From assembly GCA_040758355.1 (NCBI GenBank), contig JBFLWF010000012.1, positions 15,870 to 79,869 of the forward strand: a DNA stretch of 64,000 nt. The letters run 5' to 3'. The position numbers were made by a program. This document shows, piece after piece, positions 39,001 to 42,000 of the stretch. Source of the stretch: Nitrospirota bacterium (GTDB taxonomy: Bacteria; Nitrospirota; Thermodesulfovibrionia; Thermodesulfovibrionales; Dissulfurispiraceae). Positions within the stretch are counted from its first letter, which is position 1. Each line of letters starts with the position of its first letter.

Positions 39001-42000
39001 AACAATCCGATTTCGGCGTCCTGAAACGCGAACATAAAGACGCTTCTATCAGGATATGATGATTATTGATAATTTTATCCGCTACTTCTGCAACTCCCAT
39101 GCTTGCACCTCTCAAAATTAGTTTTCGGTTATCGGGGACAGTCCCTGTCTTAATAACAGGGACTGTCCCCTTTGCCTTAAAACCCTTACTACTTCGTATA
39201 CAGCGTCGACGGCTCCGTGCTTGTCTTCGCACCGATGAATCCCAGAGAAACCCTCTCTGCCCGTTTCTCCCTGATGAGTTTTGTAAGGGAGTCTATCTCG
39301 CCGAAGAACCTTGTCCTCGCAATACATGTATCAACGCAGGCAGGACGGAGTCCTTTCTCTAACCTATGCACGCAGAGCGTGCATTTTTCCATTACCTTTG
39401 CCTCGGCATTGAACTGCGGATGTCCGTAAGGGCACGCCCACGCGCAATACCTGCAGCCGATGCATTTGTCCTTGTTGATAAGAACTATCCCGTCCTCTTT
39501 CCTCTTTGTGATTGCCCCGACCGGGCAAGCCGCCATGCAGGCCGGCTTCCCTCAATGCATACAGGGCATCGGCACAAAGTAGACCCTTAAATCTGGCTTT
39601 TCCTTCTGATTTTTAAATTCTCCGACTTCGATCTCCATTACCCGGTTGTAATCCACGCCTACGGGAGTATTGTTCTCTCCCTTGCACGCCATGGTGCAGG
39701 CATGGCAACCGACGCAGTATTCGAGATCGACCCAGAGCGTATACTGCTTAGGACCCGGTTTTTTAAAACTGGCCTCTAAGACTTCATCCGGTACAAAAGT
39801 CCCTAATTCCGACATACCGTCCTCCTTTTTATAACCTTTCGACCCTTAGAGGCGTACCGAAACTCTGCGTACCACCTCCTATGGGGTCAACCAGCACCCT
39901 ATTTTTCAAAACAGGGTCGGCCATATAAAGCGGGTTTATATGGAAACCTGCGCCTACTCTTTCATCATGAGGCTGCTCTTTGCCGTTCATATGCCACTTG
40001 CCTTTCGGCGAGCCGGCTCCGAACCTTCCGTAAGACTGGCACACAGAGAACAACCCCGGCCTTATCCTGCTTGTAACCCTGATCTGGAATTTAAACCAGC
40101 CGTTGCCAAGATAGTTTGGATAAAACTGTTTTATGAGCTTGCGGAAATTTTTGTACATATCCGTCTCTATTTGTCCGCTGGAAGGAGACTTTGCCTTGAC
40201 CCAGTCGCCTGTCTTAACGCCCAGTCTCTCGGCATCCGCAGGGTTTATCTCCGCATAGTTCTGAGGCTTGATGGATGCGAGCCACAGGTTGTTCATTGTC
40301 CTCGACTGGGTATGGAAGGCTTCCTTATTCGTGTGAAGCTGCATCGGATATTCATTCCAGATCGCTGGATCAAGGGGCTGCTCTTTGCAGTCAACGATAG
40401 TCCTGTACATCGGCAGACCATCCATATACTCGCCAGTCATAGCGTTTTTATATGTGGAGACCTTTTCGAGGAAAGCAAAGAGTACGCGCACCTGCCTGCC
40501 TCCGGGGAATGATGTGTACTCGCCCGAGGAATAGTCTTTTGTGTATTGATGTTTTGGCGACGGGTTCTGGAATTTCCCGCCCAGCTTCACAAGACTGCTT
40601 TTCGGGTCCAATCCATCCTTAAAGTCTTTGTGCTTATAATATTCGTTCCAGAACTGCCATGAATTGTTGATATCCACGCCCGGTCCGCCTCCGTCTTTCC
40701 CGAATGCAGGAAGACCGCATTCTTTTGAGATCATTATGAGAATATCATCAGCCATTTTTGTGTCAGGTCTTATGGGCTTATAATCATGGGTCTTTGGATC
40801 GAAAGATCCTACTACAGGCTGTCTTAATGCCCATACCTGTGTTTTTACCGGCGGGTATGTCTTAAATCCTCCGAGTCTTTCGAGGTATTCGGTATCAGGA
40901 AGCACATAGTCGCAAAGCTGGGTCGTCTCTCCCATATATGCATCTATGGAGAATGTCAAAGGCATTGCCTTCAAATCCAAAAGCGCCTCGATAGTCTCCT
41001 GATTATAAGGCATTGTATAGGCAGGGTCGTTGTAGTAATTGAGATATGCCTTATTCTTGTAAGGATACCCCATTCTCACATTGGAGAAGAAGTTCGGAGT
41101 CACGCTTCTCGGAGCGCTATAACCGGAGTACCACGGCCTTGAAGCAGTCGGCTTCTTTCCCTGATATGCAGCCTTTGCCGTGTCGGCCCGGATGCCTGAA
41201 GGCTTCCGTTTTTCCTTAGCCTTTACATCGCCTTTATAAGCCGCATGCCCTGAGATAAAACCGCCTTTCCTGTCGATATTGTCAACGAGCATGTTTATGA
41301 TGCAGAGCGCCTGCCCGTTATACCAGCCGTTTGACTGCTGGACAGGGCCGCGGAACATCTCGATTGCAGGGCGTTTTGCGGATGTGAATTCCTTTGCGAT
41401 GTGGGCGATCGTTCCAGCCGGTATATCGCATACGGCATCGCACTCTGCGAGGGTTTTCTCCTGAGCCCTTTCTCTGAGCATCCTGAATACAGTCTTGTAC
41501 TCAACGCCGTTTAAGACATAGCTTGCATCGAGGTCTGCAAACCCGTCCGCATCCTGAAACATCTTAGGCTGTCCGCCGACAAGCACCACAAAGTCGCTCT
41601 GGCCGAGGCCTGCGTCTTTTCCTGTAAGGTACTTCCTCGGCTTGGTCGTGCTGACAAGGTATGTCATGTCCGTCCAGTTCCTGTAGCCCTTTTTCTTTGC
41701 GACCTTTTCATTTGGTATGGTAAGGTATTCCTTTTTATACCCGTTGTTCTCTATCATCCATCTGATCATACCCAACAGGAAATACGCGTCCGTTGTCGGC
41801 TTTATAGGAACCCATTCGCCAACGCCGTTATGCGTTGCCTTTGCAGCGGCATTCGTAAACCTCGGGTCAACCACGACATGCTTGAAATTCTTTGCATCCG
41901 GATTAAGCCTCTTTCCGAATTTCTGCAAATACCGGGCCCTCGTCTGCATGGGATAGTCTGCCTGAGTGACATTAGAGCCCATGCTTATCAAGTAATCGCA

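Follow-up and report, generated by a model that had tools for sequence, protein, structure and literature searches.

The locus considered here raises the question of whether an in-frame TGA in the gene for the beta subunit of a molybdoenzyme is a stop codon, or whether it encodes a selenocysteine (Sec) residue at a position that normally ligates an Fe-S cluster, as was proposed in the genome-wide survey's note. The window, i.e. the whole stretch of DNA analysed, comprises 64,000 nucleotides of a Nitrospirota genome and includes a minus-strand frame (39815 to 39189) that on read-through translation contains one TGA (Table 1). The survey had described a single interrupted gene at this location, and its coordinates proved exact, with the TGA at codon 88. 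The residues around this codon are PMPCMH-U-GKPACMAACP. Translation with table 11 yields one ORF of 87 aa (39552..39815) and another of 115 aa (39189..39536). The public records show the same cut, with the 87-aa part labelled 'hypothetical' and the 115-aa part '4Fe-4S', in clusters of 75 and 40 members. The split calls of 115 or 116 aa that had been noticed elsewhere were seen again, two of them (P0059 and P0061) at 91% identity and a third (P0078) at 74%.

Pfam analysis of the read-through product revealed a match to Fer4_11 (4.6e-30) over residues 77-173, and therefore the domain spans the TGA. Fifteen Cys residues together with U88 fill the 16 conserved ligand columns that make up four Cys groups. 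The best solved relative is the PsrB chain 2vpw_B (E 3.6e-37, residues 24-202), and the top PDB matches include PsrB, the beta subunit of type II DMSO reductase, ArrB and NarH. The score obtained with the DmsB equivalog TIGR02951 was 184.4 bits, under the cut-off of 214.1, and the subunit has no signal peptide. With its 16 filled ligand columns, the Fer4_11 domain and an adjoining Mo-bisPGD subunit that carries a Tat-like leader, the protein fits the four-cluster type of the CISM enzymes (DmsB/PsrB/NarH).

Table 1. Features of the beta subunit locus in the window.
Feature	Coordinates	Strand	Basis or remarks
Beta subunit (B) gene, DmsB/PsrB-type four-cluster ferredoxin	39189..39815	-	Read-through translation; 208 codons
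In-frame TGA, codon 88	39552..39554	-	Predicted selenocysteine, second Cys of group II motif C85-x2-U88-x4-C93-x3-C97-P
Hairpin 1, loop UGCAU	39527..39548	-	+7..+28 from U of UGA; hairpin of the genome-wide survey's note
Hairpin 2, GCCC-GGUCG-GGGC	39514..39526	-	+29..+41 from UGA; GUC at 39519-39521; candidate SelB-binding SECIS part
Catalytic subunit A, molybdopterin oxidoreductase, 998 aa	39829..42825	-	Pfam Molybdopterin, Molydop_binding, Molybdop_Fe4S4, TAT_signal
Upstream module: multihaem cytochrome c (169 aa), Tat-signal four-cluster FeS protein, DsrO/QrcC-like (310 aa), NrfD-family DsrP-like membrane subunit (406 aa)	42862..45553	-	Profile matches
Polyferredoxin, FlpD/MvhD-like domain, NapF-like motifs	37913..39232	-	Pfam Fer4_7, FlpD; NCBIfam napF, HdrA2 C-terminal
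TorD/DmsD/NarJ-type maturation chaperone	37194..37910	-	Pfam Nitrate_red_del 6.3e-26; syntenic
Candidate dihaem cytochrome c, 316 aa	36262..37212	-	N-terminal hydrophobic segment, two CxxCH motifs
Outer-membrane beta-barrel-like protein, alginate-export family, 609 aa	34500..36329	-	Pfam Alginate_exp 5.1e-14
Two PKD-domain proteins, 111 aa and 311 aa (the latter FecR-like)	33132..34496	-	Pfam PKD_4, PKD, FecR; syntenic

The alignment of Cys with the TGA, which had been described for eight homologues, was extended to 54 full-length proteins; all 54 have Cys at the codon-88 column and the remaining 15 ligand columns are also conserved in them. The survey's count within the family Dissulfurispiraceae was confirmed: an orthologue is present in 7 of the 67 other genomes at 84-97% identity, six copies with one TGA and one without. 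The TGA occupies codon 88 in all six, including the locus that the earlier script had missed, and the form without a stop has TGT at this codon, as had been reported. Among 57 loci located in genome contigs codon 88 is TGA in 12 and TGY in 45; the 12 represent additional species genomes, of the phyla Nitrospirota and Desulfobacterota. In metagenome contigs, 14 of 26 pattern matches are further Sec forms. The resulting set of 27 sequences, all from MAGs or metagenome contigs, consists of 21 members of one lineage (lineage 1) and 6 of another (lineage 2); the sequences are related to one another, and in some cases a metagenome contig is a duplicate of a MAG contig, with 15 distinct 48-nt segments among the 21. 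The motif flanking codon 88 is identical between Sec and Cys forms. A single Sec clade was rejected by the AU test (p 6.25e-5), and well-supported branches of the tree force at least two changes at codon 88.

That the TGA could be a real stop, the locus being a pseudogene or a split gene with products of 87 and 115 aa, is suggested by the two table 11 ORFs, by an ATG located six codons past the TGA in the window and by the databases, which keep the halves as separate proteins. Such a split would, however, break the C-x2-C-x4-C-x3-C-P motif, and the sequences evolve as one coding region. Compared with the window gene, dN/dS is 0.02-0.04 upstream and 0.03-0.09 downstream of the TGA where dS is measurable, and strong purifying selection on both halves is also seen across lineages where dS is saturated. 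Codons 89-93, which lie between the TGA and the next ATG, show only synonymous or K/R changes. Eleven of the 27 Sec forms, 5 of the 21 in lineage 1 and all 6 in lineage 2, have AAG, AGG or CAG instead of ATG at codon 94, and therefore re-initiation at this codon is impossible in them. Together with the recurrence of TGA at codon 88 in two distinct clades, these results make a real stop highly improbable.

The genome includes selA, as the survey had stated, and also selB, selD (itself containing a TGA) and a tRNA-Sec(UCA). Among the 12 other genomes with a TGA form, selA was found in 10 and the remaining two have selB over the cut-off; selA was not found in these two, nor tRNA-Sec in one of them, both being incomplete MAGs. 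The selA gene is also present in 19 of 28 genomes with Cys forms, and therefore the presence of the machinery does not separate Sec from Cys forms. A codon-usage scan of the genome for further selenoprotein genes was uninformative, as it placed the B gene at rank 2380 of 12279. Read-through of the UGA in which Sec takes no part, with a near-cognate Cys or Trp tRNA or a suppressor tRNA decoding it, has nothing specific in its favour and we consider it very unlikely indeed: the genome has complete Sec machinery, each of the 12 other genomes with a TGA form has selA or selB, the aligned residue is Cys, the classical partner of Sec, and an RNA element that resembles the SECIS loops of the genome's own fdhA and selD is frozen only in the Sec forms.

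According to the bSECIS model, a bacterial SECIS element is a stem-loop that closely follows the UGA and has G/U in its apical loop. The survey had pointed to hairpin 1 (Table 1) as a stable structure kept by compensatory changes in the TGA forms and altered in the Cys form. Its energy was reproduced (-20.3 kcal/mol), but the rest of the claim was not supported by the controls. The z-score of this fold is -0.9, with 34 of 200 shuffled sequences at least as stable, and the energies of the hairpins overall lie within the range of the shuffles (z -0.9 to -1.2). Cys forms fold similarly at this location, with a mean of -15.5 kcal/mol vs -17.5 kcal/mol in Sec forms. Covariation was not above that of shuffled alignments, 174 of 500 reaching the observed score, and the RNAalifold covariation term is -0.12. 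Hairpin energy was consequently dropped as evidence for a SECIS: the folds of Cys forms are of comparable stability, and even for the genuine elements of fdhA and selD the z-score is only -0.76. Synonymous variation is present in codons 89-96, the region of hairpin 1, which is probably in large part a by-product of the sequence coding for G-K-P-A-C-M-A-A and may act as a spacer.

A different picture was obtained for the adjacent segment. Synonymous diversity in codons 97-102 is 0.03 in 11 Sec forms, the lowest of 161 windows in a gene with a mean of 0.46, whereas the value for 10 Cys forms from the same clade is 0.64, rank 161 of 169. The sequence TGC CCG GTC GGG GCA (codons 97-101) is found in 20 of the 21 lineage-1 Sec forms, and in a variant with CCC (locus L058) the loop of hairpin 2 becomes a GUC triloop. 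GUC triloops follow the UGA in two other genes of this genome, at +23-25 in fdhA (with the UH motif) and at +21-23 in selD; compared with these, the GUC of hairpin 2 is more distant from its UGA by 11-13 nt. Work in E. coli indicates that the spacing between UGA and SECIS matters. Hairpin 2 is invariant in the Sec forms; no base pair varies, so covariation gives no signal either way. The six lineage-2 sequences have another hairpin frozen, GCAUGCC-AGGC-GGCAUGC at +13..+30, while their codons 99-103 vary. On these sequence patterns, the element under selection in lineage 1 is most likely hairpin 2, with binding of SelB as its candidate role.

As judged from these comparisons, UGA codon 88 is almost certainly read as Sec, at a position that normally ligates an Fe-S cluster. 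The central claim of the survey, Sec at an Fe-S ligand position in the beta subunit of a TtrA-like molybdoenzyme, is thus supported by conservation of the TGA codon across two phyla, by Cys in the homologues, by selection on both sides of the codon, by the Sec machinery and by an RNA constraint specific to the Sec forms.

The genes around B give an indication of the enzyme in which this subunit would act. Subunit A is encoded immediately upstream of B, and this A-B order is found in the loci long enough to show A. Its Tat-like leader scored 20 bits with TAT_signal, just under the Pfam cut-off of 22.7, and it matches PsrA (2vpw_A) weakly and in fragments (2.9e-28). The module upstream of A, syntenic with A-B in loci of Nitrospirota, Desulfobacterota and Rokubacteria, is a candidate quinone-linked partner; its DsrP-like membrane subunit is one of three copies in the genome, the third by score. 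The adjoining NrfD/DsrP-like module suggests that the enzyme is membrane-bound. Downstream of B lies the polyferredoxin, for which no signal peptide was noted; a start at the GTG at 39232 would make its frame overlap the end of B, and the true start is probably further downstream. This gene follows B in 54 of 57 loci, the exception being the archaeal loci L097-L100, with TorD-like matches only. The chaperone scored 67 bits with the NCBIfam TorD model, under the cut-off. The 316-aa candidate cytochrome matched no Pfam family over the cut-off and is syntenic in loci of Nitrospirota, Desulfobacterota and Rokubacteria, and the 609-aa barrel-like protein is syntenic in most loci, those of Betaproteobacteria included. 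In total, a cluster of 11 genes around B is conserved from Nitrospirota to sulfur-oxidising Betaproteobacteria. The operon is present in 7 of 67 other genomes of the family and in none of four of the same genus. Carriers of the cluster are sulfur-cycling taxa, and plausible substrates, given the enzyme family and these organisms, are oxyanions of sulfur or selenium and compounds of the polysulfide type. A literature search for the gene cluster found nothing relevant.

Among characterized systems, PsrABC of Thermus thermophilus (PDB 2VPW-2VPZ) is close in that PsrB has the same four Cys groups and forms a four-cluster wire beside a Mo-bisPGD subunit. However, PsrB is all-Cys, in contrast to the TGA-encoded second ligand of group II in the present gene, and the NrfD-type subunit of the window is DsrP-like, with an FeS protein of its own and a cytochrome c alongside. 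The Salmonella TtrAB proteins (NF011567, NF011569) provide the best NCBIfam model for A (TtrA) and the second best for B (TtrB), but the scores, 345.6 vs a cut-off of 1750 for TtrA and 149.4 vs 416 for TtrB, are far under the equivalog cut-offs, and therefore the enzyme is not an orthologue of TtrAB. The MOLY cluster (MolyA, MolyB, MolyC), proposed for sulfur disproportionation (PMC12998232), can be likened to this operon by composition, as it combines a molybdopterin subunit A, a subunit B and a TorD-type chaperone and is predicted to be extracytoplasmic; the same study reports MolyB OG1 as absent from its Nitrospirota strains.

Sec-containing FdhA/FdnG belong to the same enzyme superfamily and use the same decoding system, represented in the window's genome by the fdhA with UH motif and GUC-triloop SECIS mentioned above. 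In contrast to the present case, where Sec is found in an electron-transfer subunit at an Fe-S ligand position, Sec of FdhA is located in the catalytic subunit and binds Mo/W (PMC13188914). Table 1 of the same 2026 catalogue lists several predicted selenoproteins in which Sec aligns to a metal or Fe-S Cys (the NF005503 Fe-S cluster domain protein UxxC, 2Fe-2S CopZ-like, HgcB and radical SAM proteins), but these have other folds and belong to other families, with no Fer4_11/DmsB-type molybdoenzyme subunit among them, and none of these Fe-S-related entries is marked as experimentally verified. The survey's statement that the family is new to this catalogue of 119 families was correct, as it is missing from that table, and a literature search for Sec in DmsB, TtrB, PsrB or 4Fe-4S dicluster proteins found no prior report. 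A selenoprotein of this type is thus absent from current catalogues.

We consider it probable that the locus encodes the 208-residue beta subunit of a Tat-exported, TtrA/PsrA-like molybdopterin oxidoreductase in which UGA 88 specifies Sec88, a predicted [4Fe-4S] ligand. A single electron-transfer subunit would be made by decoding of this UGA through SelA, SelB, SelD and tRNA-Sec, directed by an mRNA element just downstream, most likely hairpin 2 in this lineage with hairpin 1 as a spacer. Sec88 would stand in for the second Cys of the group II motif. It is therefore predicted to act with C85, C93 and C128 as a ligand of the third cluster in the four-cluster wire, a [4Fe-4S] cluster that we take to be FS3 in NarH numbering. 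The chain would then have, at its middle, a cluster carrying a single Fe-Se bond. We infer the Fe-Se ligation and the FS3 assignment from homology and from the ferredoxin fold; Sec insertion itself is likewise a prediction, as is any effect on the potential or robustness of the cluster. The NarH clusters are treated in general statements, without residue assignments, in PMC8301774.

Sec could also be present at residue 88 without being a simple fourth ligand, the cluster being [3Fe-4S] or site-differentiated and the selenol free or weakly bound, in which case it would serve another purpose, for instance redox-active Se-S chemistry on a substrate containing sulfur or selenium, or a defence against reactive sulfur species. 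Loss of the second Cys of the ferredoxin motif gives a 3Fe cluster, as in NarH, which has Trp there, and in C102 mutants of DmsB, and we count this in favour of a non-ligand Sec. The sulfur-cycling habit of the carriers points in the same direction. So does HdrA of Methanococcus, an Fe-S-rich electron-transfer protein that has a Sec (Sec197), as is predicted for the present subunit; according to a 2026 cryo-EM report (PMC13518236), this residue forms a Cys-Sec pair between cluster A3 and FAD and is not a ligand. Against a non-ligand role, the full set of 16 ligands is kept in all 54 Cys homologues and the flanking motif does not differ between Sec and Cys forms. A spare Cys was sought in the Sec forms and none was found, all having 15 Cys plus U; neither a compensating change near codon 88 nor convergent substitutions common to the two Sec lineages were detected when searched for. 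We thus regard a non-ligand Sec88 as unlikely, and ligation of the cluster as the preferred reading.

We lean slightly towards a broader proposal, namely that a natural Sec-ligated [4Fe-4S] cluster is present in the electron wire of a widespread periplasmic molybdoenzyme, and that it evolved from Cys at least two times, each time with a different SECIS carved by synonymous changes from the hairpin-prone ferredoxin motif G-K-P-A-C-x-A-A-C-P-V-G-A. The different frozen hairpins of the two lineages would represent a clean case of a SECIS arising inside a constrained coding motif. Because the gene is cut in two in public records, surveys of Psr, Ttr or MOLY systems that need an intact B miss or misclassify these operons, and the 11-gene cluster represents a widespread uncharacterised periplasmic molybdoenzyme system that extends from Nitrospirota to Betaproteobacteria. 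Experimentally verified prokaryotic selenoproteins have Sec at catalytic or redox-active sites (PMC13188914, Table 1). If Sec ligates an electron-relay [4Fe-4S] cluster, this protein would provide bioinorganic chemistry with a natural Se-ligated cluster, for which the Cys-form orthologues at 85% identity are built-in controls. Selenium would then serve to tune or protect a cluster of the electron relay instead of a catalytic site, and ferredoxin motifs would be prone to conversion from Cys to Sec.

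The gene for the electron-transfer (B) subunit is a single 208-codon frame whose sole interruption is a TGA at codon 88, and translation with table 11 splits it into ORFs of 87 and 115 amino acids. Translated through the TGA, the gene yields a DmsB/PsrB-type four-cluster ferredoxin. Residues 77-173, across the TGA, match Pfam Fer4_11 (E 4.6e-30). Among the NCBIfam models, DMSO_dmsB (184 bits against a cut-off of 214) and TtrB (149 against 416) score highest, and no selenoprotein-specific model was returned. The closest solved relative is PsrB of the Thermus polysulfide reductase (2vpw_B, E 3.6e-37). 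The 57 aligned database homologues comprise 54 full-length proteins (54-82% identity), all with Cys at the TGA column as well as at the 15 remaining ligand columns, and three fragments of 115 or 116 amino acids that start directly past the TGA. This confirms the genome-wide survey's note, which had placed the in-frame TGA at an Fe-S ligand Cys. In the NCBI, JGI and ENA records the halves are a 'hypothetical protein' (87 aa) and a '4Fe-4S dicluster domain-containing protein' (115 aa), with database clusters of 75 and 40 members, respectively.

The note's family count was reproduced: seven of 67 other genomes carry a B orthologue (84-97% identity), with the TGA precisely at codon 88 in six and TGT in one; the four genomes from the organism's own genus have none. 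Scanning a single genome for each species gave 57 loci (54-97% identity), with TGA at codon 88 in 12 (Sec forms; nine Nitrospirota, one Desulfobacterales, two Desulfobacteraceae) and TGC or TGT in 45 (Cys forms). The family-scan genomes are mostly the same assemblies and do not constitute extra evidence. A degenerate DNA pattern for M-P-C-M-H-TGA-G matched 26 metagenome stretches, 14 of them further Sec-form genes and 12 chance matches. Past the TGA, dN/dS against the window gene is 0.03-0.09 where dS, often saturated, is measurable, and changes in the five codons from the TGA to the next ATG are synonymous or K<->R only. Re-initiation at codon 94 is excluded in 5 of the 21 forms of lineage 1 (Nitrospirota and Desulfobacterales, the window's own) and in all six of lineage 2 (Desulfobacteraceae type), because there this codon is not ATG. 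When Sec and Cys are mapped onto a maximum-likelihood tree of the 58 subunits, at least five changes are needed, at least two of them forced by well-supported branches, and a single Sec clade is rejected by the AU test (p 6.25e-5); the phylogeny indicates that the switch occurred at least twice.

The window genome, which is 99% complete, does contain selA as the note had stated (638 bits), alongside selB (385 bits), a selD that carries its own TGA, a tRNA-Sec with anticodon UCA, and an fdhA-like gene with the classical ...CARLUHAP... site. Ten of the 12 other TGA-form genomes have selA and the other two have selB over the cut-off; in one of these two tRNA-Sec was not found. The machinery is necessary but not discriminating, because selA is also present in 19 of 28 Cys-form genomes. 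Judged from sequence, Sec decoding of the codon 88 TGA is highly probable.

The note had also described a hairpin directly 3' of the TGA, kept by compensatory changes. This structure, hairpin 1, exists, but its stability is within that of shuffled sequences (z-score -0.9 to -1.2) and over the same 34 nt the Cys forms fold nearly as well (mean -15.5 kcal/mol, n=45, vs -17.5 kcal/mol in Sec forms, n=13); the coding sequence of G-K-P-A-C-x-A-A is self-complementary by nature. The compensatory changes did not hold up, as 174 of 500 shuffles reach the observed covariation score and a single pair shows a double change. Failing the shuffle, Cys-form and covariation controls, hairpin 1 was rejected as a diagnostic SECIS signal; it may be a folded spacer.

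What does set the Sec forms apart is hairpin 2, slightly further along. It falls within codons 97-102 (TGC CCG GTC GGG GCA ATC), whose synonymous diversity in 11 lineage-1 Sec forms is 0.03, the lowest of 161 six-codon windows (gene mean 0.46); in ten Cys forms of the same clade it is 0.64 (rank 161 of 169). The run TGC CCG GTC GGG GCA occurs in 20 of 21 lineage-1 sequences (15 distinct, metagenome contigs pooled in), and the exception has CCC, which closes one extra pair to give a GUC triloop. Such a triloop also caps the elements of the fdhA-like gene and selD, whose folding z-scores are only -0.76 each; such values in genuine elements show how little folding energy can tell in this case. 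The hairpin 2 loop is 11-13 nt farther from the UGA than their loops, and UGA-to-loop spacing matters in E. coli. Hairpin 2 is likely the SelB-binding element in the window's lineage. It is not conserved in the lineage-2 Sec forms (six sequences, five distinct), where codons 99-103 vary; these freeze codons 92-98 instead, as GCAUGCC-AGGC-GGCAUGC at +13..+30, a hairpin with two weaker pairs in their nearest Cys forms. The six hairpin 2 codons, elsewhere a mark of Sec forms, are also found exactly in two Cys-form orthologues (L051:6289-6306 and L057:2708-2725), which may be recent Sec-to-Cys reversions with a fossil SECIS.

Coordinates of the B gene, its cluster and the hairpin elements (window positions unless a locus is named; offsets from the U of UGA)
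Feature	Position	Strand	Remarks
Gene 1			multihaem cytochrome c
Gene 2			Tat-signal FeS protein, DsrO/QrcC-like
Gene 3			NrfD-family membrane protein, DsrP-like
Gene 4, A subunit	39829-42825	minus	998-aa molybdopterin protein, Tat leader
Gene 5, B subunit	39815->39189	minus	
In-frame TGA	39552-39554	minus	second Cys position of C85-x2-U88-x4-C93-x3-C97-P
Gene 6	37913-39232	minus	polyferredoxin, cytoplasmic-looking, FlpD/MvhD-like and NapF-like parts
Gene 7			TorD-type chaperone
Gene 8			protein with two CxxCH motifs
Gene 9			outer-membrane barrel, alginate-export-type
Gene 10			PKD-domain protein, 111 aa
Gene 11			PKD-domain protein, 311 aa, FecR-like domain
Hairpin 1	+7..+28		loop UGCAU, -20.3 kcal/mol
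Hairpin 2	+29..+41		GCCC-GGUCG-GGGC
fdhA-like gene (UH motif)	L126:1909-1953	plus	TGA, 7-bp stem, GUC triloop +23-25
selD	L018:2341-2385	minus	TGA, 6-bp stem, GUC triloop +21-23

Each Cys group of a two-cluster ferredoxin motif serves two clusters: its first three Cys are ligands of one cluster, and its fourth, which precedes Pro, is a ligand of the neighbouring cluster. By this rule U88 is predicted on the same [4Fe-4S] cluster as C85, C93 and C128, which it would ligate. A match to NarH (query 78-174, chain 177-273) sets U88, if ungapped, opposite NarH residue 187, which we take to be a ligand of FS3, third in line from the catalytic subunit. The main alternative to Sec88 as a ligand is a site-differentiated or 3Fe cluster with the selenol free. 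An extra Cys able to replace the missing ligand is absent from the Sec forms examined. We infer that Sec88 likely ligates a [4Fe-4S] cluster.

When 13 window proteins were compared with the 57 loci by local tblastn, B proved to be gene 5 of a cluster whose conservation extends across phyla (33132-45553, minus strand; loci L045-L096). Nitrospirota, Desulfobacterota and Rokubacteria keep the order of its 11 genes. A shorter version, A-B-polyferredoxin-TorD-barrel-PKD with an all-Cys B, is found in betaproteobacterial sulfur oxidisers and Sedimenticola. The top NCBIfam match of the A subunit is TtrA (346, cut-off 1750), and its PsrA match is weak. Three DsrP-like NrfD-family genes (contigs C1, C18 and C12) exceed the DsrP equivalog cut-off, gene 3 being third by score. 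The FlpD/MvhD-like domain of the polyferredoxin scores 28 bits, in a frame without TGA; MvhD/VhuD is a known selenoprotein family. The polyferredoxin probably starts at the ATG at 39100, because the GTG of the longest ORF gives a 44-nt overlap with the end of B. A second molybdoenzyme pair lies at 29383-32364 (minus strand): an 807-aa subunit, PhsA/PsrA-like and with a Tat signal, and a four-cluster subunit of 180 aa that is all-Cys and shares 48% identity with the Sec subunit. The operon is patchy (7/67 other family genomes, 0/4 of the same genus) yet has orthologues of 70-83% identity in other phyla, a distribution suggesting that the entire cluster was transferred horizontally.

In gene composition the cluster is similar to the MOLY cluster as outlined in PMC12998232. 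Full-text literature searching turned up no description of Sec in DmsB, TtrB or PsrB, and the whole of Table 1 of PMC13188914 contains no Fer4_11/DmsB-type subunit, which bears out the claim that the family is missing from that 2026 catalogue. HdrA Sec197, as presented in PMC13518236, belongs to a Cys-Sec pair and is not a cluster ligand. B would represent a selenoprotein family that is new but familiar in type, with Sec and Cys as alternatives at a metal site. Its unusual aspects would be the predicted position of Sec on a cluster of the electron relay in a respiratory molybdoenzyme, and at least two Cys/Sec switches with a separate frozen hairpin in each lineage.
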